From contig JBCCQQ010000075.1 of the NCBI GenBank assembly GCA_039024555.1, positions 1-27,787 of the forward strand: DNA of 27,787 nt, written 5' to 3'. Shown one piece after another: positions 197 to 26,217 of this stretch. Positions within the stretch are counted from its first letter, which is position 1, and the number at the start of each line of letters is the position of its first letter. Position numbers and translations under genes: made by a program. The stretch is from Cyanobacteria bacterium P01_D01_bin.156 (GTDB lineage: Bacteria > Cyanobacteriota > Cyanobacteriia > Phormidesmidales > Phormidesmidaceae). The notes under the pieces are model-generated. The model worked only from the letters and a program-made list of their open reading frames with translations, did no database searches and had not been told where the DNA came from.

Positions 197-2914
197 TTAC
201 TCGCTCTCACCAATGAGGGTGAATGCCGCCCAATCCTTTGGATCGGGATAGGTTTTTAGGGTTTCTAGCATGGCCTGACGTAGTGCTTGGGCTTTATTGT
301 GCCCTTTTGAACGCATTTGCCGATAGAACTCAGTCATCAGCTCTGCAGTAGGCGCATCTGGTACCGACCATAGTGATACGATCACGCTAGGCACGCCTGC
401 ACTGATAAGCGATCGCGACAGGCCAATCACACCGTCACCACGGATTGCCCCTTGCCCAGTATCACAGGCACTGAGCACAACTAAGTCAGCAACCAGCTCC
501 ATTTCTAAAAGTTCGCTAGCAGTCAGCAAGCCATCTTCATCCTCACCAGGGGTTAGGGCGATGGCTCCTGGAATTTCTTGGGAGTCTGTCGCTTGTCCAA
601 ATTCTAGCAATCCGTGGGTTGCTAGATGAATTAGCCGCATCCGGGCAATAGCTTGTTTGACCCTTGCCTCTGTGGCGTCGGGACCAATGTAAGCTTGAGT
701 TCCAAAACTTGAGGCAATCTCTATAGCCTCAGTTTCTGCCCCTGGTAGCTTAGCTAAATTACGTAGAGACTCATTTTCGGCAAATTCAATTTCAGAGGTA
801 TCTGGGTTGCCTATTACTAGCACCTCATTGCCATTCATTTCCCCGCGATTGCCATGGGACAATCGTTTCTGATAGGTCAAATCTAATACCTGGATAGCAG
901 GTGCTGTTAAGACAGTATGATGCTGGATCAAATAGCTACCATCTGATGCTTTCAGGGCAGGGAAAGGTACGAGCGACAGCTGGCCCTGAGGAATAAAAAT
1001 GATTTGTTCTGTCTCATCAGAGGGTAGGTGTCGCTTAATAGGATCGATCAGCAGGTCATAGAGCTTATCTAAGTTATCAGCTTCAAGGATAGGATTATAG
1101 GATGTTGCAGGTACCAAGCCACCTCGACTACGGCTCCCCAATGCTTGCCGACTTGATGTGATCAACTCGCTGATCGAAGATGATGTGTTGTTGAGGTATA
1201 TTTTCTCAAACTTGATATCATCTGCGGTAACGACCCAGATCAGCAGAAGTTGCTCATCATAAATGAGAGAGTATTCCACTAACGTTGCTTTGTGAAGACG
1301 AGCAACGTTTTGCATTTGGGCCGCAGATAGAGGTGTAGCTACTCTGCCCTCGATTTGTTCAGGAGATAGCCGCTGAGATAGTAAATCCACAAAAGCACGG
1401 GCACGACTGCGTTCGGCAACTTCCAAAGCAGCGGCTTCCTTATCTTGTCGGATTAGGACATCTTGAAGGGTTTCGTAAGCATTGCCTTGGGTGTCAAAGA
1501 TGGAAATTTTATCTTGATCAGTTAGGCCACCTCTCAGGGTGTCTTGAATGGCAATAGATTCGTAGAGTACTTGCTCGGCATCGGCAAGGCGATTCATATC
1601 CCGATAGGTAAAGCCCATACCACCATATGCAGCGGCTTCAGACCGCTTTTCGCCAATATTCTTGAAGCGATTAGCTGCTTGTTCATAATACTGAACAGCT
1701 TGAGTGTAATTGTCTTGCTGATAATAGTGATAGCCGAGTTGCATCAAGGCCCAGCCTTCTTTAGAGGGATCATTAATGGCACGGGCATGATCTAAAGATT
1801 GTCTCAAACCTACAAGGGCTTCTTCAGGCGTTTGTAGGAGAGAGCGATTACTAAGAATCAACGACATCAACGACCGGTTATTTATAGATTCGGCGATGTC
1901 ATAGCTCTGGCTGTACATCTGATAGGCTAGTTCAATCTCATCTTGCTCAGCTGCGATTAATCCCAGGGACATCAAAACTGAAGATTCACCTGATTTGTTA
2001 TTTGTACTACGCATTAACGGTAAACTTTCTTCTAAAGTTTGCTGAGCCCGCTCGTAATTACCCAGGTAAAAGTATGTGCCTGCAACGTTAAGCAAAGCAA
2101 TACTAATGCTACCAGGATTATCGCTAGTACGTGCGAGTTCCAAATTGCGTTGGTGTACTTCTAGGGCTGTAGGATAGTTGCCCAAGTCGGCATAGACACT
2201 TCCAAGCCGTTGTAGGACAAACCCCTGGGAATCAATATCATTAAGTTCCTCTGCAATTGCAAGGCTATCCTCGAGAATACGAATGGCCTCAGTATCTTGC
2301 CCAAGATTACTGTAGGCCGATCCTAAATTCCACAATGCTTTCATTTCAGCTTTACGATCTTGATTTTGACGAGCGATTTCAAGGCTACGATTTAGGACAC
2401 TGATAGCCTCCTCATTCCGGTTTGCTCTTTCATAGGCGAAACCTAATGTGTTAAGGACATTGGTTAAAGCATCCAGGTCATCAACTTGTGTAGCAAGGTC
2501 AGCAGCATGATTCAATCTGGTGATTGCGTCATCATGTCTGTCTAAACTTGCGTAGTTACTACCCAGATTGTTTAGCGCTAGGACTTCCCAGTCTGTTTCA
2601 CCCGCAGAATGAGAAAGTTGAACGGCCTGTTCTAAGTATTCAACTGCTGTAATGTGGCCACCTAAATTACCGTAAATGGTTCCCATATTTAAGAGTGTTA
2701 AAGCTTCACCGCCAACATCATTTAACTGTTGAAACTTATGCAGCACAGTCTCATAACAAGAGAGTGCTTCTGTATAGTTGCGATTTGATGACATTTCATA
2801 ACAGTCACGATGCTCTTCCCAAACAGCGTGTGATGAGTCTTGAGCTTTTGCGACAGAGATAAAGGTTGTGAATAAAAGACTAATAGCTATAGGCGTAAAT
2901 AGGCCCGATCGCAT
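197..2914 (-). CDS. Exported TPR-CHAT protease (clan CD), 905 aa
   Basis: Sec-like signal (MRSGLFTPIAISLLFTTFISVAKA-QD), roughly 10-11 TPR repeats, ERSRARAFVDLL linker, CHAT motifs IHLATHG and VVLSACDTG, C-terminal WAAFTLIG. Confidence 0.93.
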   Translation of the reverse strand: MRSGLFTPIAISLLFTTFISVAKAQDSSHAVWEEHRDCYEMSSNRNYTEALSCYETVLHKFQQLNDVGGEALTLLNMGTIYGNLGGHITAVEYLEQAVQLSHSAGETDWEVLALNNLGSNYASLDRHDDAITRLNHAADLATQVDDLDALTNVLNTLGFAYERANRNEEAISVLNRSLEIARQNQDRKAEMKALWNLGSAYSNLGQDTEAIRILEDSLAIAEELNDIDSQGFVLQRLGSVYADLGNYPTALEVHQRNLELARTSDNPGSISIALLNVAGTYFYLGNYERAQQTLEESLPLMRSTNNKSGESSVLMSLGLIAAEQDEIELAYQMYSQSYDIAESINNRSLMSLILSNRSLLQTPEEALVGLRQSLDHARAINDPSKEGWALMQLGYHYYQQDNYTQAVQYYEQAANRFKNIGEKRSEAAAYGGMGFTYRDMNRLADAEQVLYESIAIQDTLRGGLTDQDKISIFDTQGNAYETLQDVLIRQDKEAAALEVAERSRARAFVDLLSQRLSPEQIEGRVATPLSAAQMQNVARLHKATLVEYSLIYDEQLLLIWVVTADDIKFEKIYLNNTSSSISELITSSRQALGSRSRGGLVPATSYNPILEADNLDKLYDLLIDPIKRHLPSDETEQIIFIPQGQLSLVPFPALKASDGSYLIQHHTVLTAPAIQVLDLTYQKRLSHGNRGEMNGNEVLVIGNPDTSEIEFAENESLRNLAKLPGAETEAIEIASSFGTQAYIGPDATEARVKQAIARMRLIHLATHGLLEFGQATDSQEIPGAIALTPGEDEDGLLTASELLEMELVADLVVLSACDTGQGAIRGDGVIGLSRSLISAGVPSVIVSLWSVPDAPTAELMTEFYRQMRSKGHNKAQALRQAMLETLKTYPDPKDWAAFTLIGESE
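409..416. repeat. HIP1 octamer GCGATCGC (first of at least 7 copies)
   Basis: Copies read at 409, 4864, 6266, 16344, 16511, 25277 and 25687. Fewer than one would be expected by chance for an 8-mer in 27.8 kb. Hallmark of cyanobacterial genomes. Confidence 0.8.
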
Positions 2915-3258
2915 GAATTTGACTCCAATCTAGCTTTATTTAAGACTAATCCTTAAATCAAGACAAGATTTCACACAATTAATTCACTTGATATAAAATT
3001 TACGGATTGGTGCAGAAAAGATGATTAGATGACAGATAGACTAATGAGAAACTCATGAAGTTATCTAAAGCATTAAATGTTGCACCTTCAGAGACTTATC
3101 ATTTAATGGAGAAGGTTTATTAGATCTAATACATGCGTCGTAGTCTGCTTTGGATCGAGCCTTTTACGTTAGTACTTTGGAATTTACCTGTGAGTGTAAA
3201 GGTCAGACTTGACAGAGAGGAATCCGCAGGACTCTCTAACTGGAGTAGTGGAATAAAT

Positions 3259-3939
3259 ATGTTTGGGGGTTTTGTGCCTGCCTTAATCTTAATGGGTTCA
3301 TTGGTTTTGATGTCCTGTTCTAGTCAAGCAGTCGATTCTGAGCAGGTAGTTCAGGAAGCTGATCCCCGTGATAACTTTGAAAAGTCTATACCTGTGGCTC
3401 TTTCAACAAATAAACAATCTGTCAAGTCAAACGATATTACAATCCCAAGCACTTATCAAATAACGATTCAGGGAGAAACTGAAGCAGGTGCTTTTAATGA
3501 AATAGAGGCTACTTTAGAACTGAAGCCCACGGATGACCCAGATTCCAATCCGATTTTAGTAGAGCTTTACCCGAGCAATTTTAACCAGGACAGTTTGACG
3601 AATGGTCATCTATTTTGGCAGTCTTACACCCCTGAGCTGCCCACCGCGGATGAACATTTCAGTCGAGTGACGGTGGAGGGTAATCAAGTCAGTTTAGAGG
3701 TGAATCCAAGTGAGACATTCCGCAGTGATGTGATGTGGTTTACCCAATTGACGGGCACGTTAGCCGAGCTCCCTGGAATGCAAAGGGAATCAACAAGATT
3801 GGGGGCTATGGCTGAAACGGGTACATTGACTTTTCAAGTTCAAGGTTCTCGCATAATGGGCGAAGTAGCCATTACTGGAATATCGGATTTAGGCACTCCG
3901 AGTACTTACACGGCAACTTTTTCAGGACAGGTTCTGTAG
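3259..3939 (+). CDS. Putative lipoprotein, beta-rich, unknown function (ORF open from 3133)
   Basis: In-frame ATG at 3259 gives a hydrophobic stretch ending in lipobox-like LMS-C (MFGGFVPALILMGSLVLMSC). The remainder has alternating beta-strand-like patterns. It ends 14 bp before the next gene. Start choice is inferred. Confidence 0.7.
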   Translation: MFGGFVPALILMGSLVLMSCSSQAVDSEQVVQEADPRDNFEKSIPVALSTNKQSVKSNDITIPSTYQITIQGETEAGAFNEIEATLELKPTDDPDSNPILVELYPSNFNQDSLTNGHLFWQSYTPELPTADEHFSRVTVEGNQVSLEVNPSETFRSDVMWFTQLTGTLAELPGMQRESTRLGAMAETGTLTFQVQGSRIMGEVAITGISDLGTPSTYTATFSGQVL

Positions 3940-3953: not shown

Positions 3954-6482
3954 ATGCAATCTAAGGTTAAGGTCTTAGTTATTGGGCTATTGATAGGACT
4001 GGCGCTAAGCGGGTTTATTGGTATCGTACAAACGCGCTTAAATGCTATGAGCGCTAACGATAGCATGGTCAATGTTTCTGCTCAATATCAGTTTTTAGGG
4101 GACGACTCACCCCGGATTGAGGCCTTAGAGGGCAATCCTAATTGGAGCACTGACAGAGTTTTTAAGATGTTTAGCAGCGGACAGTGGCAGCTTTTTTCTA
4201 ATGGACAGTTTGTATTCCAGCCTGGACCTACAGCCTCTGTTCGAAGGGATTTATTCCCAATTAGAGGAACCTACACGACAGGAGATGGGGAAATACTGTT
4301 TCAGGCCGAACGTCGGTCAGAGAGTACCAGTGCAGTAGCTTCTGTGGATGGCATGCTGATGCTAAACGGAGAGCAGGCGACGGTTGAAATCATTTACACG
4401 GTTGTTGCGTTAGACTCACAGCGTGTAGTTCATGTTTCGCAAGCACTTTTGCCGGTATCAAACGATGAACTGATTGAGAACGTTCCCTTCTCTTCCCCAA
4501 CTAACGAGCCCTTATTTGAGGGCACTTGGCAGCTACCCGATTTGGAAACGCTCGAACTGCAGCAACGTGGGCAACAGGTAGAAGGAACCTATACCGGACG
4601 TGGCGGTGGACAGATATCAGGACAAGTAGAAGGGAGTTGGTTATCGTTTACTTGGCAAGATCCCCAGGAAATGGGTCGAGGTTTTTTGCGTGCTGTTTCC
4701 CAAGGAAGAACTTTAGCTGGTCTGTTAGAAACACGTGCAGGTGAGCTCAGTAATTTGCTTGCAACTCGAACCAGCGCTCCGGAAATTAATGAGGATGAGC
4801 TGGCTTCATTGAGTCGTGAAGGCTTGAGAGATCAGGGATACAGTTATGTCTTGGATAGTCAGTGCGATCGCGCGATCCCCTATCTTGATCGTGCCCTATC
4901 GCTATACAGGGCTGATAGGGATAATCCTGAAATTTGGGAGGTTATGCGAGATTCAGCCCTGATTGATGAAATCAATATTTCAACTCGCTTGATCCATTGC
5001 CATTTTCAGTTGAAGAATTACGAGCCACTATTGGATGCGCTTATCGATACAGTGGAAATTCGACGGATACTGAGTGACCGCCCCTATCTTTCTAATCTAG
5101 CCCAGGAGAATTTAGATAACTTAGCATCACGTTTGGAAAACTGGCGCTCCAGGCTGGCTGAAGATACAGCAAGAATTTCTGCCGTGGATCAGGGTCAGCG
5201 TTTTTTTGATACGCTGGTGCGAGTATTTGTGGAATTGAGTGATAGAAATTCGGATAGTTACGAAGCGGCATTAGTGGCTTCAGAGCAAAGTCGAGCACGG
5301 GCCTTTGCCGATTTGCTCTATCGTAAATTGTCAGCTGACCAGGCATCTGAATTTGTTACAGCCCAATCACTGTCTACAAGCGATATCAAGGAAATCGCTC
5401 GAGAGCAAAGTGCAACGTTGGTGGAATATTTCTATGCAGAGGATGTCCAGCAGCTCTACACCTGGGTTGTTCAGCCAACAGGGGATATCCATTTTCAAGC
5501 AACAACCGTTCAAGATAATTTAGATGAGCTGGTTCAGTTGACCCGATCTTCGTTTGAGCGACGGCGAGGAGGTTTTGAACTTGTGTCAGGGGCGGAAGTT
5601 ACTGCTGAGTTAGATTTGTTACCTGAGTTACATCGGTTACTGATTGAACCCATCACAACGCTTTTACCTAGTGATCCTATGGATCGAATCATCTTTATTC
5701 CCCAAGGCCAGCTGTTTTTGGTGCCTTTTCCGGCATTAAGATCTAAAGATGGAGCTTATCTGATTGAACAGCATACCGTGCAGACTGCACCTTCGATTCA
5801 GGCGATTGATTTGATCCACCAGCGATATGAGGGGGGGATCCAACAGCGCAACTGGCAGTCAGAGGATTTTTTAATTGTTGGGGATCCGGAAATGCCTGAA
5901 GTTCGTTTGCGTACTGATTCCGAACCTATACAGTTACCTAGTCTGGCAGGGGCTAAGAATGAGGCTGAGGCAATTGGTAAGCTGTTTGAAGCACCGTTTT
6001 TGACGGGGAATGTGGCAAGCGAGTTGCGGGTCACTGAGCAGATGGAGGTAGCCAGAGTTATCCACCTGGCTACTCATGGTCTGTTGGAATATGCAGAATC
6101 AGAGCAGATCCCTGGGGCGCTGGCATTTGCCCCCACGGAGGGGTTGGATGGTTTGTTGACATCAAGCGACATCTTAGAGCTAGAACTTAAAGCAGATTTA
6201 GTCGTACTGAGTGCTTGTGATACAGGGCGTGGCCAAATCACAGGGGATGGAGTCGTAGGGCTATCGCGATCGCTGTTGCAGGCAGGGGCAGCAAGTGTTG
6301 TCGTGTCGCTATGGGCAGTGCCTGATGCAGCAACGGCAGCGTTAATGATTGATTTTTATCAGCGGCTTAAGCAGGGTGAGGAAAAAACTCAAGCATTACG
6401 GCAGGCGATGCTGTCCACGATGGATGACTATCCTGAACCTGACAACTGGGCTGCATTTACATTAATTGGAGAAGCCCAGTAA
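3954..6482 (+). CDS. CHAT protease with N-terminal signal/TM anchor, beta-rich domains and a short helical/TPR-like region, 842 aa
   Basis: Hydrophobic N-terminus (VLVIGLLIGLALSGFIGIV), beta-rich segment FEGTW...VEGTY...ISGQVEG...FTW, SEQSRARAF linker, IHLATHG and VVLSACDTG, WAAFTLIG end. Confidence 0.92.
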   Translation: MQSKVKVLVIGLLIGLALSGFIGIVQTRLNAMSANDSMVNVSAQYQFLGDDSPRIEALEGNPNWSTDRVFKMFSSGQWQLFSNGQFVFQPGPTASVRRDLFPIRGTYTTGDGEILFQAERRSESTSAVASVDGMLMLNGEQATVEIIYTVVALDSQRVVHVSQALLPVSNDELIENVPFSSPTNEPLFEGTWQLPDLETLELQQRGQQVEGTYTGRGGGQISGQVEGSWLSFTWQDPQEMGRGFLRAVSQGRTLAGLLETRAGELSNLLATRTSAPEINEDELASLSREGLRDQGYSYVLDSQCDRAIPYLDRALSLYRADRDNPEIWEVMRDSALIDEINISTRLIHCHFQLKNYEPLLDALIDTVEIRRILSDRPYLSNLAQENLDNLASRLENWRSRLAEDTARISAVDQGQRFFDTLVRVFVELSDRNSDSYEAALVASEQSRARAFADLLYRKLSADQASEFVTAQSLSTSDIKEIAREQSATLVEYFYAEDVQQLYTWVVQPTGDIHFQATTVQDNLDELVQLTRSSFERRRGGFELVSGAEVTAELDLLPELHRLLIEPITTLLPSDPMDRIIFIPQGQLFLVPFPALRSKDGAYLIEQHTVQTAPSIQAIDLIHQRYEGGIQQRNWQSEDFLIVGDPEMPEVRLRTDSEPIQLPSLAGAKNEAEAIGKLFEAPFLTGNVASELRVTEQMEVARVIHLATHGLLEYAESEQIPGALAFAPTEGLDGLLTSSDILELELKADLVVLSACDTGRGQITGDGVVGLSRSLLQAGAASVVVSLWAVPDAATAALMIDFYQRLKQGEEKTQALRQAMLSTMDDYPEPDNWAAFTLIGEAQ

Positions 6483-13505: not shown

Positions 13506-15854
13506 ATGAAACAACAAGGTTGGATATCTCCTGTTTTTGCACCTCTCATGATGCTTGGTCTAATTACAAGCTACGTATTGGCTACAATACCCCCTGCTCT
13601 AGCTCAAAATTCACAAAATGAATCCCTAACTCAATCTAATAGGGCCTTTGAACAAGGTTTAACAGCCTATCAAAATGGCCAAATGTTAGAAGCTATTCAA
13701 CACTGGCAAAATGCTTTAACGTTATATGAGATTCCTCTAAAACGTGCGCAAATATTGGGTAATCTAGCAATTGCCTACTATGAGACGGGTCAATATATCA
13801 ATGCTCTTGAAGTAAATCAAGAGGCATTGGACATCTTTGATGATCTAGACATGGAAGAAGCTGTTGGTCAAGTTCAAAGCAATTTAGCGAATGTCTATGT
13901 CAATTTAGGAGACTATAACAGTGCTATTGCAGCCTATCAAACCAGTTTAAGCGCTGCCCAGTTGTCAGGAGACCGTGTTGCTGAAGGCATCATTACAGGT
14001 AATCTTGGTTATATTTACGCTATTCAAGGTGAACAACTAATTGCTCTAGAAAAATATGAGCACAGTTTAGCCATTGCCAGAGAAATGAACGATCTCGAAG
14101 GCGAAAGCCATCGACTGTTAAACATTGGATTGGCCTATCATGCTCTTGAAAACATTCCTTATGCTATCTCGTACTATCAAATGAGCCTCGAGATTGCACA
14201 AGATCTTAATCATCGTTCTCTGCAGGCTAAGGCATTAGGGAATTTAGGAATGGCTATAGCTGATAACGATCAATATGACAATGCCATCTTACACTACGAA
14301 CAAAGCCTCACTATTGCCAAAACATTGCATGATCCAAACCTGACAGCAATGATACTTAATAATTTAGGGTATACCTTTTTAGCAGCTAATCGACTGGACG
14401 AGGCTGAAGAGAAACTAAGAGAAGCGATCTCAAACTTAGATAGTCTCCGTACGCAGCTTAACGATACCTACAATGTCTCAATTTTTGATACCCAAATTTA
14501 TACTTATAACCTGCTAGCGCAAATTTTAGTAGCACAGAATAAACCAGAAGCAGCTTTAGAAATTTCAGAAGCTGGACGGGCCAGGGCTATAGCTAAGCTC
14601 TTAACCAATCGATTTCAATCAACTGATATAGAACTTGCCGGTTCAGCTTCTGAGCACGTTGATAACTCCTTACCACCAACCATAAATGAAATTCGACAGT
14701 TGGCACAAGAGCGAAACGTTACCTTAATTGAATATTCTCTGGTTCCTGAAGAAGCTTTCCGGCAGCAGGGTAGGCAGCGAGGGCGCATATCCGAAATTCA
14801 TATTTGGGTAGTAAAACCAACAGGAGAAGTGAAATTTAATCAGGTCAAGTTATCTCCTGATGAGCCGTCTTTGCAAGACTTAGTGTCTAATAGTCGCCGG
14901 GCTATGGGGGTTTCTGATGGGCGTGGAGGATTAGTATTGGAGAATGATCTGCCTCAAAATCAACTGAAAACCTTACATCGTTTGTTGATTGAGCCAATTG
15001 CTGAGTGGTTGCCAACCAATCCTGCATCCCCAGTCGTCATTATTCCACAAGAAAGACTCTTCCTTGTACCATTTGCGGCTTTACAAAACGAAGCTGGTGA
15101 ATACCTAATCGAACAACACACTCTGTTAACAGCCCCATCAATCCGAACCCTATCGCTAACTCATGCAATGAGGCAAAATCAACGTATTAGCGTTTCACAG
15201 CAAAATTTAACTGAGAAAGAAGCATTAGTGATCGGTAATCCTGTAATGCCGAATATTTGGGTTTCACAGGAGGAACCTTCAAAACAACTTCCGACTTTGC
15301 CAAAAGCTGTAAATGAAGCAGAAACAATTGCTGGTATTTTTGGAACCGAACCTCTTATCGGACATGAGGCAACAGAAACCTTTGTCAAAGAGCGGATACA
15401 AACTGCGCAAATTGTTCATCTTGCAACTCATGGCTTACTGGAATATGGTCAGCCCAGAACTTATGGTATCCAAAATATCCCCGGTGCGGTAGCCCTTGCA
15501 CCTAGTCAGGATGATGATGGTCTATTAACTGCCAATGAGATCCAAGCCTTTGAGTTAAGTGCTGAATTAGTTGTTCTGAGCGCCTGCGATACAGGGCTAG
15601 GGACCATTACAGGTGACGGTATCATTGGCCTTTCCCGTTCTCTTATCGCAGCCGGAGCACCCAGCGTTGTAGTGTCACTTTGGTCAGTCCCCGATGCCCC
15701 CACCGCTGACCTCATGATCAAATTCTATGAAGAACTTGAATTAGGAAAAGACAAAGCTCAAGCACTGCGGCAAGCGATGCTACAAATCATGGAAGAATAC
15801 CCTGATGAACCCCAAAACTGGGCTGCGTTCACCTTAATTGGAGAAGCCAATTAA
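13506..15854 (+). CDS. Exported TPR-CHAT protease, 782 aa
   Basis: Signal ending PPALA-QN, about 7 TPRs, SEAGRARA linker, VHLATHG and VVLSACDTG. Starts 17 bp after the tpsA stop. Confidence 0.93.
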   Translation: MKQQGWISPVFAPLMMLGLITSYVLATIPPALAQNSQNESLTQSNRAFEQGLTAYQNGQMLEAIQHWQNALTLYEIPLKRAQILGNLAIAYYETGQYINALEVNQEALDIFDDLDMEEAVGQVQSNLANVYVNLGDYNSAIAAYQTSLSAAQLSGDRVAEGIITGNLGYIYAIQGEQLIALEKYEHSLAIAREMNDLEGESHRLLNIGLAYHALENIPYAISYYQMSLEIAQDLNHRSLQAKALGNLGMAIADNDQYDNAILHYEQSLTIAKTLHDPNLTAMILNNLGYTFLAANRLDEAEEKLREAISNLDSLRTQLNDTYNVSIFDTQIYTYNLLAQILVAQNKPEAALEISEAGRARAIAKLLTNRFQSTDIELAGSASEHVDNSLPPTINEIRQLAQERNVTLIEYSLVPEEAFRQQGRQRGRISEIHIWVVKPTGEVKFNQVKLSPDEPSLQDLVSNSRRAMGVSDGRGGLVLENDLPQNQLKTLHRLLIEPIAEWLPTNPASPVVIIPQERLFLVPFAALQNEAGEYLIEQHTLLTAPSIRTLSLTHAMRQNQRISVSQQNLTEKEALVIGNPVMPNIWVSQEEPSKQLPTLPKAVNEAETIAGIFGTEPLIGHEATETFVKERIQTAQIVHLATHGLLEYGQPRTYGIQNIPGAVALAPSQDDDGLLTANEIQAFELSAELVVLSACDTGLGTITGDGIIGLSRSLIAAGAPSVVVSLWSVPDAPTADLMIKFYEELELGKDKAQALRQAMLQIMEEYPDEPQNWAAFTLIGEAN

Positions 15855-15884: not shown

Positions 15885-18164
15885 ATGGTTAACCTGAATC
15901 GTCGTCACTTTCTTCAAGGCACTGCCGGAGCCCTCGGTGCAATTGGCCTTAGTCAGTTAAGCTTAACCCACTCTGCCACCCGTTACGGTCAGGCTCTTGC
16001 CCAAGATACCTCTCGCAAGGTTGCCCTGCTCGTTGGCATTAATAGCTACCCTGGTGAAGCCCTGGGCGGCTCGCTGAACGATGTAGAGCTACAGCGACGA
16101 CTGCTAATCCATCGCTTTGGCTTTAATGATAGCGATATTCGTATTCTGCCAGAGCAACAAGCCTCACGTCATAACATTTTAGGTGCCTTTAACGAATACC
16201 TCTATGAACCTGCAAAGTCAGGTGATGTGGTTGTTTTTCACTTTTCTGGCCACGGTGACAGAGTGCGAGAAAGTGAACTTATGGGCGATTTTATAAATCG
16301 GTTAGACAGGAGTTGCATTAATCCTAACGAATGTCTGAACACCGCGATCGCACCCTACCGCTATGACGAAGACCTCGAAAACGGGGTACAAGAAATCATG
16401 GGTCATACGCTCCTGTTAATGCGGGCAGCTCTAGCCCAGAAGACCGAGAATGTCACATTTGTGCTCGACTGCTGCTATGCAGGCGGTGGCAAACGGGGCA
16501 ATGCCGTAATGCGATCGCTCAACCAGGCGTCGGTCACCCGATCCGGCCTGCGACAAATCTTTGACACGGAATGGGAATACCAGCGACAGCTCTTAGATCA
16601 GCTAGGCTGGGATGAAAATCAGTTTGTTGAGGCCATCCTTTCACCCCAGGGGCAGGGCTTTTTTATAGGGGCTGCTCAATATAATGAACTGGCCGCAGAC
16701 TATAGCTTTGATGGCTTCACCGCCGGGGCCTTCACCTATCTACTCACCCAGTACCTCTGGCAAGCCACGGGTCCCCTGTCAGAAACCATCCCCATGGTTA
16801 CTAGCAGTTCGACCCGGTTAGCGGAGCATAGCCAACAGCCCATCTACGATCCTGATCCAACTGCAGAACCCGCCGTTCGCACCAAGCCGATTTACCATAT
16901 TGACCCCGTTGCCCAACCGGCTGAGGCCCTGGTGCTAGGCCCGGTTCAAACCGAATCAGCCGCCGATAAATCAGAGGATGATCGGCTCCAACTCTGGCTG
17001 GGGGGGCTAGATCCTTGGTCATTAGACGCCTTCGATCAAGGTGCTATCTTCTCAGTCATTGATCACAAAACAGGGGAAGAGCTGGGCGAAGTCCAACAGA
17101 TTGATGGCACGAGAGATGGGCTCCTCACCGAAGGTCGATTTGTCAGCACAACTCGAGGCACCCGAGCAGCAGATACGTCTGCCCAATTTCTGCAAGAAAA
17201 GATTCGCGGCATCCCTAAGAACGTCACCCTCAAAGTCGCCCTGGATGAGACCCTGACGCCTGCCGAACGGCAGGTTGTCCTGGATGACCTGGGTCGATCT
17301 CCTGATTTTGAGGTCTTTCCTGTACAACCTGGCCAGTCAGCCCATGTGCTTTTAGGCCGTTACACTGACAGTATTGACCAACGTCTAGGGTTAAATTCTG
17401 TTGATATTCAGTTACGGCAAATCATTGGCAGCATTGGCCTATTCTCCCCTACCCAAAAACCTATCCTGGTTGGCTCCTTTGGGCAGACCGGTGAAACCAT
17501 AGAAGCCGCTCTTGATCGGCTCAGATCCCGGTTTGTGAGCTTATACCTTGGGCGTATGCTAGCCCTGATGGTTAACCAGCAAACCTCTCGCATTAATGTC
17601 AGTCTATCGGTCGATCATCGCGGCTCCCGCAGTGGGACCACCACCCGTGGCGGGAATCCCGATGACATTATCATTCCACAGCAGTCAGAGCGCGGGATTG
17701 ATCAAATCGTTGTGGGCAATGAAATTGCCGTCAAAGTCCAAAATAATGAATCCTACGATTTGCACTTTGGTGTCCTGGTGATTGACGCGGCGGGGGAGGT
17801 CAATGTCTTATTTCCCCCAGCTGTAGATGATCCTCAAATTGATTTGATTTCTAGTCGGCAGTCAGAAACGATCGGACTGAAAGGGGCAGAGCCTCACGGC
17901 ATTACGGAGTTGCTGGTCTTAGCGAGCCCCCAGTCCCTGGTCACCCCCCTCAAAAAATTAAGAGGCAGTGCGCCTAAGGTAAATCGACGGCTCAGGCGAG
18001 GTGCCGAAGCGGATACCGTCGCGGCAATGGACGATATCTTTGGCGCGATGGATACCCGTAGATCGGGGGGGACCGTTAGCTCAATTCAAGGCCCAAGGTT
18101 GCTAGATGTGCAAAACGTGGCTGTTTTATCTTTGCTCTTTGAGATCGTACCAACGGAATCATGA
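15885..18164 (+). CDS. Caspase-family (peptidase C14, orthocaspase-type) protein with Tat signal and C-terminal DUF4384-like Ig domain, 759 aa
   Basis: Twin-arginine NRRHFLQ, KVALLVGINSY, LNDV, VVVFHFSGHG (catalytic His), VLDCCYAGG (catalytic Cys), GAFTYLL, C-terminal VKVQNNE...LVIDAAGEVNVLFP. Confidence 0.9.
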   Translation: MVNLNRRHFLQGTAGALGAIGLSQLSLTHSATRYGQALAQDTSRKVALLVGINSYPGEALGGSLNDVELQRRLLIHRFGFNDSDIRILPEQQASRHNILGAFNEYLYEPAKSGDVVVFHFSGHGDRVRESELMGDFINRLDRSCINPNECLNTAIAPYRYDEDLENGVQEIMGHTLLLMRAALAQKTENVTFVLDCCYAGGGKRGNAVMRSLNQASVTRSGLRQIFDTEWEYQRQLLDQLGWDENQFVEAILSPQGQGFFIGAAQYNELAADYSFDGFTAGAFTYLLTQYLWQATGPLSETIPMVTSSSTRLAEHSQQPIYDPDPTAEPAVRTKPIYHIDPVAQPAEALVLGPVQTESAADKSEDDRLQLWLGGLDPWSLDAFDQGAIFSVIDHKTGEELGEVQQIDGTRDGLLTEGRFVSTTRGTRAADTSAQFLQEKIRGIPKNVTLKVALDETLTPAERQVVLDDLGRSPDFEVFPVQPGQSAHVLLGRYTDSIDQRLGLNSVDIQLRQIIGSIGLFSPTQKPILVGSFGQTGETIEAALDRLRSRFVSLYLGRMLALMVNQQTSRINVSLSVDHRGSRSGTTTRGGNPDDIIIPQQSERGIDQIVVGNEIAVKVQNNESYDLHFGVLVIDAAGEVNVLFPPAVDDPQIDLISSRQSETIGLKGAEPHGITELLVLASPQSLVTPLKKLRGSAPKVNRRLRRGAEADTVAAMDDIFGAMDTRRSGGTVSSIQGPRLLDVQNVAVLSLLFEIVPTES

Positions 18165-18210
18165 TTTCATAAATCTAGAGTCCCCATCCATCTAAACCAG
18201 TGCCAGGGCA

Positions 18211-19467: not shown

Positions 19468-19601
19468 CCTGATAATGTTTTCAAAGTGCTCACTGAATAA
19501 TGGTAGTCACTCTTCTATGGCCCCCCTTTCTCAAGCGAGGTTGTGGGGATCTCGACGCCTTAAAGCAACTGAGCGATCTCCCTCAGTCCCCCTTAAAAAG
19601 G

Positions 19602-19767
19602 CTACGGTGTACACACAAGTCCTGAAAACTAGCATTTGCAGTTGCCTCACCCCCTCTAACTCCCCCTTGGTAAGGGGGAGAACTGGAGTTTCCCCCCTTA
19701 CCAAGGGGGGATTAAGGAGGGTAAGGCAGAACTTTGAATTCCCTGCCGAGATGTGTGTACACGGTAG
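19602..19767. mobile_element. 166-bp MITE with IS4/IS50-like 19-bp terminal inverted repeats and target-site duplication
   Basis: Left end CTACGGTGTACACACAAGT (19602-19620). Right end reverse complement CTACCGTGTACACACATCT (19749-19767). Direct repeat CCTTAAAAAGG at 19591-19601 and 19768-19778 (or 9-bp CTTAAAAAG if the TIR is extended by 1 bp). No transposase. Confidence 0.88.
19650..19722. repeat. GC-rich hairpin-type cyanobacterial short dispersed repeat inside the MITE
   Basis: TCCCCCTTGGTAAGGGGGA and TCCCCCCTTACCAAGGGGGGA are each self-complementary and inverted relative to each other. Related sequence lies at ~19520-19552 and at the insertion site (TCCCCCTTAAAAAGGGGGA). Confidence 0.7.
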
Positions 19768-19795
19768 CCTTAAAAAGGGGGATGTTCACTCTATC

Positions 19796-20890
19796 GTGAG
19801 ACATCGCCTCACTTGCAATCGACTGTTGCTTATTGGTGCCCTCTCCCTGGTGAGCTGGCTCACCTTCTCAACAGTGGCATGGGCTCGTCTGGCTCGCCTT
19901 CAATCCGTTGAGGGCGGTGTGGTCTATTTAAAGCGTTCGAACTGGTCTGATTTTTATCAGACCTATCCCCCCACGATGCTAAATGGGGATGATTTACTGA
20001 GAATTGAACCTGGCACATTGGTGACCTTGCTGTGTCCTGATAACACTGAAAGTGATACGGTCAGTGCGGGCGTCTCCAGCGTCACCGATGCCTGCCCAGA
20101 TACCCCCCGTCGGGTGCGGCCTGTGTTTGGGGTCAGCGATACCTGGAGCGCAACCGATCCAGAGATTCCCTACGTCATCACCCCTTGGTCAGGTCAGGTG
20201 TTAACGCCGACCCCCCATCTACGCTGGAATGCGGTGGCAGGAGCTCGGCAATATACGATTACGCTACAAAAGCGAGTCGGCGCTGACTGGTCTGATGTAT
20301 GGACGGTGATCAGCGATCAGACCGTGCTCTGCTACCCGGCCAATCAGCCAGCGTTGGAGTTGGGTGCAGAATATGCCTTGCGGGTTGTGGCGGGTACCGG
20401 CACTGCGTCATCCCAGGAGTGGATACCCACAGCGGTCTTTAGCTTAGTTGGGGGGCGAGAACTCGCCGATGCTGAAGCTGAGATCGCTGCTGTCAGGTCT
20501 ATAGAGGCCCCTGAAGCGTTCAAAACAGTGCTCCTGGCCGAAGAGGTGTATCCCAAATATAAGCTTTTTGCCCAGGGTATTGATGAGCTGCTGAGCTTGA
20601 TTGAGTCGGGGGCAGAGACGGCTCATATTTATCGACTTTTAGGGGATTATTACATCCGCAGCGGGCAGGCATTGCCCACCGAAGATAGCTATCTAAAAGC
20701 ACTGACATTAGCCGAAGCCGAAGACCATTTAGAAGAACAGGTCAAGGTACGCTGGGGGTTGGGAACGCTGTATAACCGGATAGGTCAACCAGAGCAGGCT
20801 CGAGAGCAGCTACTGACAGCCCAGCAAGGGGCAACTGAGCTAGGCGATACTGATTTAATTGCCAGCATCGAAGCAGAGCTGGAAAAATGA
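19796..20890 (+). CDS. Exported protein with beta/Ig-like (DUF928-like) middle region and C-terminal TPR; alternative in-frame start ATG 19475
   Basis: GTG 19796 gives a clean signal peptide (MRHRLTCNRLLLIGALSLVSWLTFSTVAWA-R). PYVITP...PHLRWNAVAGARQYTITL motif and C-terminal TPR helices (LLGDYY..., GLGTLY...). The upstream part of the track ORF runs through the MITE. Confidence 0.82.
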   Translation: MRHRLTCNRLLLIGALSLVSWLTFSTVAWARLARLQSVEGGVVYLKRSNWSDFYQTYPPTMLNGDDLLRIEPGTLVTLLCPDNTESDTVSAGVSSVTDACPDTPRRVRPVFGVSDTWSATDPEIPYVITPWSGQVLTPTPHLRWNAVAGARQYTITLQKRVGADWSDVWTVISDQTVLCYPANQPALELGAEYALRVVAGTGTASSQEWIPTAVFSLVGGRELADAEAEIAAVRSIEAPEAFKTVLLAEEVYPKYKLFAQGIDELLSLIESGAETAHIYRLLGDYYIRSGQALPTEDSYLKALTLAEAEDHLEEQVKVRWGLGTLYNRIGQPEQAREQLLTAQQGATELGDTDLIASIEAELEK

Positions 20891-21082
20891 TGTAATCACT
20901 CTGAAAACTTTCGGAATATCCAGCAAAATATGTGTAACTTAGGGGTATTCCCCACTAAATCAGTGAATAACAGAAAGTCTTGAATAAAGAACAACAGGTA
21001 ATTGGAGCTATCTCATTTTAGTAATCATGCTCCACACCCATTTCCTTCCACTAACCTAACAGTACATATAGGAAATCTTTCT

Positions 21083-23704
21083 ATGGTTGTCTTACGCAGG
21101 TCTGTAGCATCTTTAGTAACAGCTTTACTCATGCTGATACTGCCTGTTGTGATAGCTCCTAGGACGGGCTTAGCTATTCTTCTGGCCCAATCTATCGGGG
21201 AACAGATGGCTGATGCTTCGGATTTTCTAACAGAGGGACTTCATCACCGTAGTCTACTGAGATTCAATGATGCATTAAATTCATTTGAAAGAGCTCTGTC
21301 AATTTACCAAGCGATTCAATCTGCATCAAGAGTGCCTGACCGAACTCGACAGATTGCCAGACGGGGAGAAGCTGATACCCTCCGAGAAAGGGGGCGTTTA
21401 TTAATTGAGCTGGATGATTATGAGGCGGGTCTTGCAGACTACAATCAAAGCCTTGCCATCTATCGCGAACTTGAAAATAAGGCATATGAAGCAACAACTC
21501 TGAATAGCCTTGGCGTTGATCAGTATACTCAAAGAAAATATACTCAAGCTCGAGAAAGTTTTGAACAAAGCTTAGAGATTCATCGCCAGATTCCAAATAA
21601 TCCTATCTATCAACAAGCAAGTTTACTCAACAATATTGCCTTAACATATCAAGCAGAAGAAGACTACAACAATGCATCAATCACATACGAAAGAAGTCTT
21701 GAAATATATGAATCCTGTTTACCTCTTCCAAAATGTGAAGAAGGAATTGGTAATGTTTTTAGCAATATTGCCTCATTTTATAATGAGACCGGCAATCACG
21801 ATTCAGCAATATTTATCTATCAAAGGCTTTTCCCAATAGCTAGCTCAACACTTCAATTCGATATCCTGTACAGTTTAAGCACTATTTTCTACAATCAGGG
21901 TACCGATGCTTTAGAAGCACTGGAAGAGGATTCAGAAGAATATTACTTACAGGCTCTTGTATACTTCCAAGAATCCTTAGCTAGCATTCGAAAAGAAGTC
22001 TCCAACCGTGATAAGCGAGTAGATGAAGCTTTAGCACTTAATAGCATTGGAATCCTCTTAAATCACCTCGATGAAACAGAATTATCAATTATTTTCTTAA
22101 AGCAGACAGTCAATGTTTATGAGTCAATTCGTGCTGATAACCGCGACCTTTCAGAGGACTTACAAGAATCCTATTTCACCAAATTTGACGATGCTTATCG
22201 GTTGTTAGCCGAGCTATTGTTAAAACATGACCGTATTCTGGAAGCTCAGCATGTTTTAGACCTGCTGAAGGAGCAGGAACTCAATAACTACCTGCGGGGT
22301 GTGCGCAGTTCTGATAGTGCTCGAGAAGGTACAGAACTGGTGCTTGCTGAGACCATAATTGTCAGTGCCCACAACACCCTGATTGACCAGATTATTGCCA
22401 ATGGTAAACGCCTGAGTGAGTTGGAGGCTAAACCTACCCTCACCGATGCCGAGTCGAATGAACTCGTTGGCCTGCAAGCTGAACAGCGGCAAATTCTACA
22501 AGATTTTAATGCTTTCAAAGATAGCGAAATTGTACGAACGCAAGTTGCCTTACTCAGCCCGCAAGAACGTAGCCAGACTATCCCGATAGAACAGCTTCCC
22601 GCCCTACAGGATAACTTAAGTGAGATTCCCCAGGGGGCAGTGCTCCTATATCCCTTCATACTCGATAATAGTTTGGAACTTATTGTCACCTCTCCTTATT
22701 CACCTCCTGTTCGGCATACGGTAAATGTCTCTCACCTTGAAATCAACGATGCCGTCCAAGCCTTTCGCTACGCCTTAGAAGAGCCCACCCGCGATGCCCT
22801 TACCCCAGCCCAAACCTTGTATAACTGGCTGATCGCTCCTATCGAAGCTGACTTAAAAGCAGCTAGGGTCAACACCATCATCTACGCTCCCGACCGTTCT
22901 TTACGCTACATTCCCCTCGCCGCTCTCCACGATGGCGAGCAGTGGCTGGCCGAGCGCTATCGCATCAATCACATCACTGCCGCCAGCCTCACCGACCTCA
23001 ACACCCCGCCCAGGTCAACCCCCAGTCTCCTGGCCGGTGCCCTCACTGAGGGACCGCTGACCGTCAGCGTGGGTGACAATCAGTATCGGTTTAACCTGTT
23101 AGAGCATGTCGATGATGAAGTCAACCACATCGCCGAGCTATTTCCAGGTAGCACCCCACTATTAGATACTGATTTTAATCGTACCCGGATTGAGCGCGAT
23201 GCCAATTGCCACTCCATTCTCCATCTGGCTACCCACGCTAAGTTTCTAATCGGTCAACCGGAAGATTCTTTTATTCTCTTCAGCGATCAAGAACGCTGGA
23301 CCCTGCAAGATTTCAAAGAGGGTCTCCTTAACCTGACGCGAGTCGATTTGGTGGTGCTCAGCGCCTGCGAAACCGGCGTAGATAACACCTTTGGCAATGG
23401 GGAAGAAATACTCGGCTTTGGCTACCTGATGCAGACCGCTGGCGCAAGGGCTTCCATGGCTTCTTTATGGGCCGTTGACGACGGCGGTACCCAAATTCTG
23501 ATGACTGAGTTTTACGATGGCCTGGTGCGTGGCAACCTCGGCAAGGCCGAGGCATTGCAGCAGGCCCAAATGGCTCTGATTCGCCTGGGTGAGGAGCGTG
23601 ATCGGGGTGGGCTGGAGCTGGCCAATGCCATTGGTCTGGACCCCAATGATTTATCCCATCCCCACTATTGGGCACCGTTTATTCTGATTGGCAATGGGCT
23701 ATGA
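21083..23704 (+). CDS. Exported TPR-CHAT protease of a second CHAT subtype (coiled-coil linker), ~873 aa
   Basis: ATG 21083 preceded by AGGAA, hydrophobic leader, TPRs, LDLLKEQEL linker, LRYIPLAALHDG, ILHLATHA, VVLSACETG, HPHYWAPFILIGN. Confidence 0.92.
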   Translation: MVVLRRSVASLVTALLMLILPVVIAPRTGLAILLAQSIGEQMADASDFLTEGLHHRSLLRFNDALNSFERALSIYQAIQSASRVPDRTRQIARRGEADTLRERGRLLIELDDYEAGLADYNQSLAIYRELENKAYEATTLNSLGVDQYTQRKYTQARESFEQSLEIHRQIPNNPIYQQASLLNNIALTYQAEEDYNNASITYERSLEIYESCLPLPKCEEGIGNVFSNIASFYNETGNHDSAIFIYQRLFPIASSTLQFDILYSLSTIFYNQGTDALEALEEDSEEYYLQALVYFQESLASIRKEVSNRDKRVDEALALNSIGILLNHLDETELSIIFLKQTVNVYESIRADNRDLSEDLQESYFTKFDDAYRLLAELLLKHDRILEAQHVLDLLKEQELNNYLRGVRSSDSAREGTELVLAETIIVSAHNTLIDQIIANGKRLSELEAKPTLTDAESNELVGLQAEQRQILQDFNAFKDSEIVRTQVALLSPQERSQTIPIEQLPALQDNLSEIPQGAVLLYPFILDNSLELIVTSPYSPPVRHTVNVSHLEINDAVQAFRYALEEPTRDALTPAQTLYNWLIAPIEADLKAARVNTIIYAPDRSLRYIPLAALHDGEQWLAERYRINHITAASLTDLNTPPRSTPSLLAGALTEGPLTVSVGDNQYRFNLLEHVDDEVNHIAELFPGSTPLLDTDFNRTRIERDANCHSILHLATHAKFLIGQPEDSFILFSDQERWTLQDFKEGLLNLTRVDLVVLSACETGVDNTFGNGEEILGFGYLMQTAGARASMASLWAVDDGGTQILMTEFYDGLVRGNLGKAEALQQAQMALIRLGEERDRGGLELANAIGLDPNDLSHPHYWAPFILIGNGL

Positions 23705-26217
23705 CCATCCAGACCTTGGCAATCTGGCGATGGCTTTTGCTGGTGTCAGTGATGGGTTCTCCGGTTTTCTTTGAACTCATTGGGATTGATCCGGTGTTAC
23801 CCGAGATCGCCCAGGAACCCTCAAGACAGCTACAACTAGCCGAAGCCGATAGACTTTTGCTGCAGGGGCAAGATCAGTATAGAGCGAGAGAATTTCAAGC
23901 CGCACTGGCGTCTTTAGCTGCGGCACTCGAGCGCTATCACGAAATTGGTGACCAGTCAGGGGAAGCCGACGCTCTAGACAGTTTAGGTTATGTGCACTTT
24001 GTACAAGGCAATTATACGAGCGCGATAGATTTTTACACCCAACACGTCACCGTGATTCAGGCCTTGATTGATGCTGAAGGTCCGAGTGAACCTCTTATCA
24101 GGCAAGCCGCAGCGAGCCTATCTCAATTGGGTGATATCTATCGCTTCTTGGAAAAGTTTCATTTCTCAGTAGATTCATTTGAACAGGCTCTCAGCATCAT
24201 GCGGGATTTGGAGAGGCGAGATCGTCTAGCCGAGGCCTATCTGCTCAATTCACAAGGCGTCAGTTATCAAAAACTAGGTCAATTTTTACGGGCTCAGAAG
24301 AATCATGAGGAAGCCTTAGAAGTTGCCCGGACAATTGAGGCCCCAACCGTTGACAACCAAACTTCGGAGTCCGACCTTGAGGAACAAATTTTTATTTTGG
24401 AATCTACTGCTCTGGGGAATTTAGCAATTGTTTATAACGCCCTTGGCGAGCAGTCTTTAGCGTTATCGCTGCGCAGAGAACATTTAGATCTTGTGATCGA
24501 AATGGGAGATCTTGTAGCACAAGCAAAAGTATTCAATAACCTCGGGGTTGATTACTCACAGTTAGAGCAATACGCCGATGCCCTTGAGTATTTTAGGCAA
24601 GCCTTAGTCTTGGCCCAAGAAGTAGGTAGTGGCGAAACGGAGATTGCCGCATTGAACGGTTTGGGGCGTGGATATACACATCTTCGCCAATATGAAACTG
24701 CTTTTGACCACTTTCAACAGGCCTTGACGATCTCTCAACACAATCACTTTCGGGGAAGTGAAGTTGACGTCCTTACCGACATGGGTTATCTGCATCTATT
24801 TTTGGATGACGCCCCGAACGCTGAAACGGTTTTCTGGCAGGCTGTGCCAATTGCAGAGTCTCTCAGGGATGATGCTCTGCCAGATGTTTTTAAGGTCAGT
24901 CTGTTTGATCTGCAAAGCTCCACCTATGAAGGATTAGAACAGGCTCTAGTTCTTCAAGGTAAAGATGCACGGGCGCTTGAGATCTCAGAGCGCAAAAGAG
25001 CCAGAGCCTTTGTTGATTTGTTGTCTGCCAGCATATCCGAACAGCAGACGGCTCCTTTGCTGGCTGCCCCGCCTGATCTGAAGGCTATTCAGCGAATTGC
25101 GCAGCAAAATCAAAGTGTGCTGGTTGAGTATTCTCTGGTTGAAATCGGGGCAGATAGCCCAGCCATTTATATCTGGGTGGTTCAACCTGATGGACAATTG
25201 GACTTCCATAAAGTTGCTTTAGAAAATGATTCCCTTGATTTGTCCAGCCTAGTCATGAGCAGTCGGGCCGCGATCGGCGATCGCTCACGGGGAGGACTCG
25301 AGCTATCGGCGGATTACGCTGTCAATAACGATCATCTTCGTCAGTTGCACCAACTGCTGATTGAACCGATCGCGGATCTTCTACCCACCGATCCCGAGCA
25401 GCGGGTCGTCTTTATTCCTCAAGGGGAACTGTTCTTGGTGCCTTTTCCAGCACTAATAGATGAGGCCGATACCTACCTGATTGAAAAGCACACCATACTG
25501 ACAGCTCCCTCTATTCAAGTATTGGATTTAAGTTGGCAGCAACGTGAGGCCCAAGCGTTTTCCACAGTCATCAATCCCCAGAACTTACTTTTGGTGGGCA
25601 ACCCTGCCATGCCCGAAGTGTGGAATCCAGAGACCTCAACCACGCAGGCGTTATCCAACCTGCCCGGAGCTGAACAAGAAGCCAGGGCGATCGCGAGCTT
25701 CTTCAACACCACTGCCCTGCTCGGTTCCGCTGCTACTGAGACTGCTGTAAAAGACCAGATTGGTAATGCGCGGATCATTCACCTGGCGACCCATGGCCTT
25801 TTGGAATACGGCAATCCTCAAGATTCTGGAGTGCGGGATGTGCCCGGTGCCATTGCACTCACCCCAGGAGATGGCGAAGACGGCCTGCTCACTGCCGCCG
25901 AAATCATTGAAGAACTCGACCTGAATGCTGAACTGGTCGTTCTGAGTGCCTGTGATACGGGGTTAGGTCAGGTGACTGGCGATGGGGTGATTGGTCTTTC
26001 CCGCTCCTTGATTGCAGCGGGTGCTCCCAGCGTGATCGTTTCTTTATGGTCAGTGCCAGATGCACCCACCGCCGATTTGATGACGGAGTTTTATGACCAA
26101 ATGCGGCAAGGGCAAGACAAGGCCCAAGCCCTCCGACAAGCGATGTTGACGACAATGGCCAACTATCCAAATCCCCGAGGTTGGGCGGCGTTTACACTGA
26201 TCGGCACTGCTGACTAG
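23701..26217 (+). CDS. Exported TPR-CHAT protease, ~838 aa
   Basis: ATGA overlap (23701-23704) with the upstream stop, hydrophobic leader, about 8 TPRs, ERKRARAFVDLL, IHLATHG, VVLSACDTG, WAAFTLIG. Confidence 0.93.
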   Translation: MTIQTLAIWRWLLLVSVMGSPVFFELIGIDPVLPEIAQEPSRQLQLAEADRLLLQGQDQYRAREFQAALASLAAALERYHEIGDQSGEADALDSLGYVHFVQGNYTSAIDFYTQHVTVIQALIDAEGPSEPLIRQAAASLSQLGDIYRFLEKFHFSVDSFEQALSIMRDLERRDRLAEAYLLNSQGVSYQKLGQFLRAQKNHEEALEVARTIEAPTVDNQTSESDLEEQIFILESTALGNLAIVYNALGEQSLALSLRREHLDLVIEMGDLVAQAKVFNNLGVDYSQLEQYADALEYFRQALVLAQEVGSGETEIAALNGLGRGYTHLRQYETAFDHFQQALTISQHNHFRGSEVDVLTDMGYLHLFLDDAPNAETVFWQAVPIAESLRDDALPDVFKVSLFDLQSSTYEGLEQALVLQGKDARALEISERKRARAFVDLLSASISEQQTAPLLAAPPDLKAIQRIAQQNQSVLVEYSLVEIGADSPAIYIWVVQPDGQLDFHKVALENDSLDLSSLVMSSRAAIGDRSRGGLELSADYAVNNDHLRQLHQLLIEPIADLLPTDPEQRVVFIPQGELFLVPFPALIDEADTYLIEKHTILTAPSIQVLDLSWQQREAQAFSTVINPQNLLLVGNPAMPEVWNPETSTTQALSNLPGAEQEARAIASFFNTTALLGSAATETAVKDQIGNARIIHLATHGLLEYGNPQDSGVRDVPGAIALTPGDGEDGLLTAAEIIEELDLNAELVVLSACDTGLGQVTGDGVIGLSRSLIAAGAPSVIVSLWSVPDAPTADLMTEFYDQMRQGQDKAQALRQAMLTTMANYPNPRGWAAFTLIGTAD

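Follow-up and report, generated by a model that had tools for sequence, protein, structure and literature searches.

The window analyzed here is a stretch of 27,787 nucleotides from Cyanobacteria bacterium P01_D01_bin.156 that encodes six proteases, each with an Arg-Gly-Gly (RGG) triplet previously suggested to be a common cleavage and activation site. It is the entire contig C75 of a 6.6-Mb genome (G000), and the flanks beyond the contig are unseen. Pfam searches of its 12 long open reading frames (ORFs) identified five proteins with a CHAT domain (PF12770; 200-248 bits against a cut-off of 24) and one orthocaspase with a Peptidase_C14 domain (PF00656; p20 domain match with an E value of 7e-16). 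The His/Cys dyad is intact in all six proteases. H[LF]ATH and LSAC motifs are present in all five CHAT proteins, and the dyad is found in 371 of 372 collected homologs. Named close relatives of the window proteins are cyanobacterial, and the genome has 34 CHAT ORFs. Hydrophobic N-termini, together with a conserved twin Arg in the caspase (RR in all 112 homologs in which that column is filled), suggest that the proteases are exported; the DUF4384 and TAT matches of the caspase fall below the curated Pfam cut-offs. No Cas7-11, Cas10 or SAVED gene was detected by Pfam among the 12 long ORFs of this contig.

Each of the six RGG triplets lies in frame in one of the protease ORFs, at the position given in the original prediction (Table 1). 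Three additional in-frame RGG triplets in the window (1526-1534, 4599-4607 and 9964-9972) were absent from it. In ORFs of the genome away from CHAT and caspase genes, RGG occurs at 0.207 and RGG[LFIVM] at 0.046 per 1000 amino acids (aa), compared with 0.547 and 0.383 in the genome's 38 CHAT and caspase proteins, whose paralogs are not independent. Given the background rate for RGG, six hits in short loops are not due to chance, though four of them are in paralogs.

The motif had been described as part of a linker just before the CHAT core. This is correct for the four CHAT proteins of subfamily A, in which the site is located in a loop (loop A) 13-18 residues ahead of the Pfam CHAT match, but the fifth CHAT protein and the caspase have it elsewhere. 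ORF 21002 (subfamily B; ORFs are named here by their first position) has a short loop A without the motif, and RGGLEL is found instead in loop B, a C-terminal insertion between the last helix and the final HPxYW motif that is not homologous to loop A. In the caspase, R588 precedes the weak DUF4384 match, approximately 390 residues past the catalytic Cys. One homologous linker motif across the six proteases is ruled out by these three unrelated positions. Across homologs, a long insert is present at site A or at site B, not at both: the median lengths of the two are 28 and 12 aa in 62 subfamily A proteins, and 17 and 35 aa in 112 subfamily B proteins. RGGLEL is shared by loop A of ORF 23668 and loop B of ORF 21002, with codons that differ at four of the six positions, which argues against DNA copying between the two loops.

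Table 1. Protease genes of the window and the Arg sites within them
Feature	Positions	Strand	Remarks
TPR-CHAT protease, subfamily A, 905 aa	197..2914	minus	H767, C817; signal-peptide-like N-terminus by eye
R597-G-G, loop A, SRS-R-GGLVP	1118..1126	minus	in ORF 197-2914
CHAT protease, subfamily A, 842 aa	3954..6482	plus	H708, C755; N-terminal part without Pfam TPR match
R538-G-G, loop A, ERR-R-GGFEL	5565..5573	plus	in ORF 3954-6482
TPR-CHAT protease, subfamily A, 782 aa	13506..15854	plus	H642, C694
R473-G-G, loop A, SDG-R-GGLVL	14922..14930	plus	in ORF 13506-15854
Orthocaspase (Peptidase_C14), 759 aa	15885..18164	plus	H123, C197; twin-Arg N-terminus, weak C-terminal DUF4384
R204-G-N, caspase, GGGK-R-GN	16494..16502	plus	candidate site just past the catalytic Cys; absent from the original prediction
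R588-G-G, caspase, TTT-R-GGNP	17646..17654	plus	in ORF 15885-18164
R726-S-G, caspase C-terminal segment	18060..18068	plus	elsewhere, the equivalent segment bears the tag of its locus
TPR-CHAT protease, subfamily B, 900 aa from first TTG	21002..23704	plus	H745, C789
R868-G-G, loop B, ERD-R-GGLEL	23603..23611	plus	in ORF 21002-23704
TPR-CHAT protease, subfamily A, 849 aa from first TTG	23668..26217	plus	H709, C762, invariant D798
R541-G-G, loop A, DRS-R-GGLEL	25288..25296	plus	in ORF 23668-26217

The last 471 residues of ORF 23668 were modelled with AlphaFold2 from an alignment of 95 rows, with an overall predicted local distance difference test score (pLDDT) of 89 and a predicted template modelling score (pTM) of 0.91. 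The sole segment with pLDDT below 50 is residues 162-164 of the fragment, i.e., S540-R541-G542, a coil between two helices. In this subfamily A model, loop A is disordered, as had been anticipated for a cleavable loop, and the motif is not buried. The closest structures included Csx29 (Z 28.6, root-mean-square deviation (rmsd) 3.1, 377 aligned residues), human separase (Z 27.2, rmsd 3.5, 400 aligned residues) and DdvA (Z 23.9), and in the model the Csx29/separase fold spans the whole C-terminal part of the protein. In a sequence search of the PDB, DdvA was the one match, and a weak one. An invariant Asp in the LWxVxD motif (D798) or an invariant Glu (E293 of the fragment) may be the counterpart of the S1 Asp of separase, as judged from position. 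A single-sequence AlphaFold prediction of the CHAT fragment was discarded (pLDDT 39), and prediction of a complex between the fragments of ORFs 23668 (A) and 21002 (B) scored 0.00, which gives no verdict and weighs neither way.

Conservation in homologs centers on the Arg. Among the 120 best matches of ORF 23668 (query included), R[GSA] is present in loop A of 114, RG in that of 86 and RGG in that of 43. Arg occupies its column in 109 of them, and from the third residue after it onward no residue exceeds 53. Further representatives have RG in 89 and RGG in 19 of the 121 proteins that were parsed (11 of 132 were not). In loop B of subfamily B, R[GSA] is present in 113, RG in 106 and RGG in 18 of 117 proteins (3 of 120 were not parsed), and loop A of this subfamily contains R[GSA] in only 4 of 116. 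R588 of the caspase is R in 117 of 119 homologs, with RGG within that segment in 61 of 119. These counts rule out RGG as an invariant code. The general site across the family is R-[G/S/A]-(x)-hydrophobic-x-hydrophobic, with GG[LF] as one variant. Thus, of the suggested R|GG scissile code, an Arg conserved in an otherwise variable, disordered loop stands, but the RGG is only a variant of a wider R-[G/S/A] site.

The residues that follow the Arg (hereafter the tag) were compared in a sample comprising 159 loci that surround relatives of the caspase and 120 stretches that surround CHAT genes, with two duplicate loci and four duplicate loops removed before permutation tests. In locus L094, loop A has RTDIIV, loop B RSDIIV and the caspase tail RSDIVV. 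Loops A and B have RGVIKL and RSVIKL in L102, and RGNFKI and RGNFDI in L171; in genome G327 (contig C13), loop A has RGIEL and six B loops have RG[IV]; and RGGLNV is present in both loop B and the caspase tail of L129. The tags of other loci, such as RGIE, RSDIIV and RGNF, differ from that of the window. Similarity between loops A and B within a locus was 10.9 vs 4.9 (18 loci, z 5.1, 0/10000 permutations) and, when RGG[FL] loci were removed, 14 loci gave 3/10000. Shuffling of the loops with the Arg fixed abolished the signal (6.38 vs 0.26±0.66, 0/100). The match is found on the prime side only (z 5.6 vs 1.2 on the non-prime side, in 13 loci with a scored site in both loops). Loop A also matches the C-terminal segment of the caspase (49 loci, 3/10000). 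Comparison within and between loci, which had been proposed as a check, shows that the residues after the Arg are matched between non-homologous loops of neighbouring proteases.

The prediction of a locus-wide code is therefore right in that the tag is common to neighbouring loops, but the tag is not private to the locus, and locus cannot be separated from genome or lineage. RGG[LF] is also found on contigs C6, C10 and C69 in addition to C75, which rules out an RGG restricted to the window; the tag thus marks a module family or lineage and not only the locus of the window, and the p-values obtained by permutation are inflated by kinship. Another tag in the same genome, RIIG, is found on contigs C15, C16 and C26, and the contrast of similarity within and between loci of this genome is clear (11.3 vs 4.4). 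Among non-protease neighbours, the tag is not above chance (one gene among 892 across 113 loci, against 1.15 under the null), which argues against a nearby non-protease substrate bearing it.

The caspase has three conserved candidate sites (R204, R588 and R726), and R204 is an Arg followed by a small residue in 117 of 118 homologs. R588 had been included in the shared code. Its Arg is indeed conserved, but covariation of this segment with CHAT loops is weak (105-353 of 5000), and the best covariation is at the C-terminal segment containing R726. In a dead caspase, P0492, the R204 site is lost and the R588 site is kept.

We also examined CHAT paralogs lacking the catalytic His or Cys. The initial set, 9 of 276 distinct loops, was extended by targeted searches to 35 dead vs 272 live. 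At the loop centre, 147 of the 272 live proteins have RG, compared with 3 of the 35 dead ones, and KG is present in 27 of 35 dead (K[GSA] in 29 of 35) and 9 of 272 live proteins; the motif is therefore not equally common in dead homologs. A scan blind to the P1 residue gave R in 144 and K in 2 of the live loops (48 with no site, 78 with other letters), and K in 18 and R in 1 of the dead loops (9 with no site, 7 with other letters). Several dead loops can be paired with those of their neighbours: KGAKFE with RGAKME, KGIEV with RGIEV, KSDISV with RSDISV and KASVMIE with RASISVE. By eye, the dead-loop tag is like that of the neighbours in several loci; when 178 loci were ranked, the own locus was at 10-30 for five of eight dead loops and at 90-144 for three of eight. 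Of the 34 short stretches obtained for the additional dead CHATs, only 11 show a live neighbour within approximately 1.5 kb.

With a median stop-to-stop length of 477 vs 952 aa, the dead proteins are short, and those inspected in full are essentially a CHAT module with a hydrophobic N-terminus and, by eye, no TPR array. In the short dead families (L196, L244, L236, L084, L073, L315 and L311-L344), His is replaced by N/T/M/Q and/or Cys is gone, Lys occupies the loop site, and LWxVxD is retained in 27 of 34 dead CHATs checked. A quick IQ-TREE phylogeny of 84 sampled rows (SH-aLRT support), from which the loop was excluded, places long branches with full support between subfamilies A and B. The 16 short dead A proteins that were sampled group as a single clade within live A, and the 5 dead B proteins fall within B. 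Therefore, the switch from Arg to Lys arose at least twice, in different loops. By sequence, dead paralogs of other loci fit the securin principle, in which the recognition motif is kept and the P1 Arg is replaced. No dead A or B CHAT was found in the window's genome. A dead kinase-fused CHAT, P0258, has lost the site, and no orthologs of it were present among the loci returned.

The tagged loops and the Lys-for-Arg dead relatives suggest a self-activating protease cascade with matched built-in brakes. We consider it fairly probable that tethered Arg-P1 bait (zymogen) loops are cut in trans within an exported network of CHAT proteases and orthocaspases, in which Lys-bearing pseudo-CHATs are matched decoys. 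The proteases would be Arg-specific, by analogy with HetF, separase and MaOC1. The loops would be read in trans by the active sites of partners, because a site used purely in cis gives no reason for unrelated loops to converge or for dead paralogs to avoid Arg. Cutting after the Arg would relieve inhibition and spread activation, whereas pseudo-CHATs would set the threshold as poorly cleavable decoys with a matched tag, as securin does for separase. The window itself has the tag GG[LF], six intact dyads and no encoded decoy. A broader idea is that filamentous cyanobacteria contain exported separase-like cascades with an evolvable prime-side address. Every enzyme would display a bait loop with its Arg and tag, acquired independently at two sites of the CHAT fold and in the tail of the partner caspase; proteases would activate one another only when their tags agree, and dead paralogs with Lys tags (evolved at least twice) would be matched inhibitors keeping parallel modules apart. 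This idea is plausible but stops somewhat short of probable.

If the loops are physiological cut sites, they would provide a first substrate for each enzyme, allow its partners to be predicted from sequence and, for some loci, point to a candidate inhibitor; activation of the family could then be examined by single-residue changes. Bacteria would then have a counterpart of separase autocleavage and securin in which the prime side carries the specificity. TPR-CHAT proteins are abundant (34 in this genome and 81,980 representatives at E values up to 1e-10), and few substrates or triggers named in the literature were found. The families of the enzymes are established, as are the principles of Arg-directed self-cleavage and pseudosubstrate inhibition. 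We found no description of the loops, the shared and matching tags, the Arg/Lys switch or the Lys-bearing pseudo-CHATs in the literature searched, which did not cover most subscription papers or any supplements.

In Anabaena PCC 7120, the CHAT domain of HetF cuts PatU3 at R117|S118 (PMC9457339); this is also a cyanobacterial CHAT protease that cuts after Arg, with a small P1' residue. However, its substrate is a separate protein, and the accessible part of that report describes no self-loop, paralog tag or dead paralog. Separase (clan CD, C50) needs a P1 Arg and cuts its own inserts without a change in activity, and it is blocked by securin, in which the P1 Arg is replaced (PMC10317155, PMC4626109). 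In addition to the fold seen in the model, the likeness extends to a TPR-like region joined to a caspase-like protease, Arg at P1, unstructured internal loops with self-cleavage sites and an inhibitor lacking the P1 Arg (PMC10317155). Window-type loops differ in their occurrence in many bacterial paralogs with signal-like N-termini and in their shared prime-side tag. Moreover, securin is an unrelated disordered protein with a hydrophobic P1 residue, whereas in CHAT loci the candidate for this role is the protease's own dead copy, which has Lys at P1.

Cleavage by SAVED-CHAT activates PCaspase, with PCi as its inhibitor (10.1101/2023.06.23.546230), which provides an example of a CHAT protease activating a neighbouring caspase-like protease and of an encoded inhibitor that damps the response. 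That system is CRISPR- and cA3-triggered and has one CHAT, unlike the window with its five CHATs that bear the site themselves. The orthocaspase MaOC1 autoactivates at Arg219 (reviewed in PMC7475262 and PMC5756287); as a cyanobacterial, Arg-directed C14 protease activated by self-cleavage, it is the closest precedent for the Arg sites of the caspase, although it is described without DUF4384 or CHAT partners. An Arg-P1 preference of orthocaspases is supported by docking only in one report (PMC8283722). The substrate of bacterial LcCaspase, an alpha/beta-hydrolase zymogen, has conserved putative R|G sites (10.1101/2025.11.14.688446). The conserved R|G motif in a substrate of a caspase-like protease is similar, but this substrate is a separate death effector, whereas non-protease neighbours in CHAT loci do not have the tag above chance. 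Csx29 (Craspase) and DdvA are among the best structural matches, yet they are only 13-20% identical, and no equivalent tagged loop is reported in the part of PMC11506125 that we consulted. DdvA is a periplasmic TPR-CHAT protein for which trans-autoproteolysis of a linker has been proposed but, in the same text, not observed (PMC11506125).

Several observations weigh against the trans-cut network. We infer cleavage and activation of the window proteins from their sequences, and export was called by eye. Because self-cleavage of separase leaves its activity unchanged, cutting does not necessarily mean activation. The match between loop B and the caspase tail is weak (52 loci, 60/10000; 354/10000 without RGG loci). 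Specificity of the tag for a locus beyond lineage or genome was not supported, as similarity to the own locus did not exceed that to the locus whose caspase was most alike (p 0.36, 0.075 and 0.78). Non-homologous pairs were more similar within than between loci in just 7 of 11 genomes, and B-B pairs in 5 of 10. The tag may therefore follow the lineage or the genome, and there are few independent events. Subfamily A accounts for 30 of the 35 dead loops, mostly from the targeted search in one cyanobacterial family, and the 16 dead A proteins sampled in the tree form a single clade. Arg is retained in one of the five dead B loops, and the site is missing from two dead A loops. Finally, 48 of 272 live loops have no scoring site, and many other live CHATs, e.g., those fused to TPS domains, do not have the motif.

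The same controls fit a reading in which RGG was inherited by four recent paralogs, and its counterparts in loop B and in the caspase reflect the composition of flexible linkers or DNA copying, with no function in common. Four of the six sites are homologous, and RG dipeptides are common in the family of the window caspase. Such inheritance with lineage bias is nevertheless very improbable: loops A and B occupy different positions in the fold of two deeply separated subfamilies, shuffles that preserve composition abolish the signal, the RGGLEL codons differ as noted above, and descent does not account for a parallel Arg-to-Lys switch in two dead lineages. Other explanations accept the site but assign it a different role. 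If the active site read Arg alone, the cut could expose a new N-terminus (GGLEL...) that a shared reader, e.g., a TPR domain or a membrane receptor, would recognise as a tethered ligand or docking tag. Protease-activated receptors and the neo-N-terminus of caspase-9, which binds XIAP, are analogous cases. Every partner would then present an identical new N-terminus, and TPR and membrane-TPR genes flank the caspase in the window and in 16-20 related loci; the shared information is also limited to the prime side, whereas separase motifs, in the accounts available, are read on the non-prime side. However, the reader is hypothetical, and dead paralogs keep the tag behind Lys, so that, if Lys is uncut, the tag must work in an intact loop. 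We regard this role as unlikely.

The chances are similarly low that the loops are autoinhibitory or docking pseudo-substrates, held in the cleft of the same protein or of a partner until displaced by a signal, with cutting being incidental or serving turnover. Autoinhibitory loops do occur in separase, whose fragments remain associated after autocleavage without a change in activity (PMC10317155); as for DdvA, autoproteolysis is a hypothesis in the text consulted (PMC11506125). A matched tag and an R/K switch would fit docking as well as cleavage. Yet a good inhibitor should avoid a cleavable P1 residue, whereas live enzymes keep Arg and only dead ones have Lys, and the monomer model places the loop confidently nowhere. 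The trans-cut bait loop with Lys decoys remains our preferred interpretation of the site.

Additional features of the CHAT proteins were observed. ORF 21002-23704 has a second conserved Arg-small site, YLRxVR[GS], after the TPRs (residues ~430-436), which is present in all 112 parsed homologs. In six subfamily A proteins (P0299, P0305, P0315, P0320, P0340 and P0347), an extra insertion of approximately 50 residues is located in loop A directly after the Arg site. Five subfamily B CHATs on contigs C15, C16 and C26 of the window's genome carry the tag RIIGQR in loop B.

The caspase-DUF4384 gene forms a module (15885-20890) with genes for a membrane-TPR protein (18211-19467) and an Ig/DUF928-like TPR protein (19418-20890). 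This module is duplicated on contig C69, and the two partners are matched in 20 and 16 of the 159 caspase loci. A dead caspase-DUF4384 relative in the same genome, with Tyr/Gly at the dyad (contig C5, 79634-81757), has one RG/RSG match vs 9-11 in four live ones. In the Ig/DUF928-like TPR protein, GDLRGGSDP is present in six sister loci (L035, L037-L040 and L154) and SDTWSATDP in the window; judging from these sequences, it is possible that an R|GG substrate site was lost in the lineage of the window.

DUF928 genes of this genome are found on contigs C1, C4, C5, C6, C8, C10, C11, C18, C50 and C52. A G/A-rich motif ending in [ST]R is located just after a signal-like segment in 11 of 12 of these proteins; the C8 protein contains GGASR four times in the part inspected. 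Seven of the 12 genes lie within approximately 4 kb of a CHAT gene, and on sequence grounds the DUF928 proteins are candidate substrates. Of 24 ORFs with TPS domains in the genome, 7 have a GRGG motif 83-102 residues from the C-terminus; the TPS protein of the window (8776-13488), which adjoins a ShlB transporter (6513-8297), is without it. A DDE transposase (PF13701) lies at the contig end (26600-27709) and matches positions 5-344 of the 435-position model only. The lipoprotein-like ORF 3133-3939 has no Pfam match and only weak beta-barrel look-alikes (TM below 0.5 by query); relatives of this ORF or of the N-terminal part of ORF 3954-6482 are fused to CHAT proteins in a few loci.

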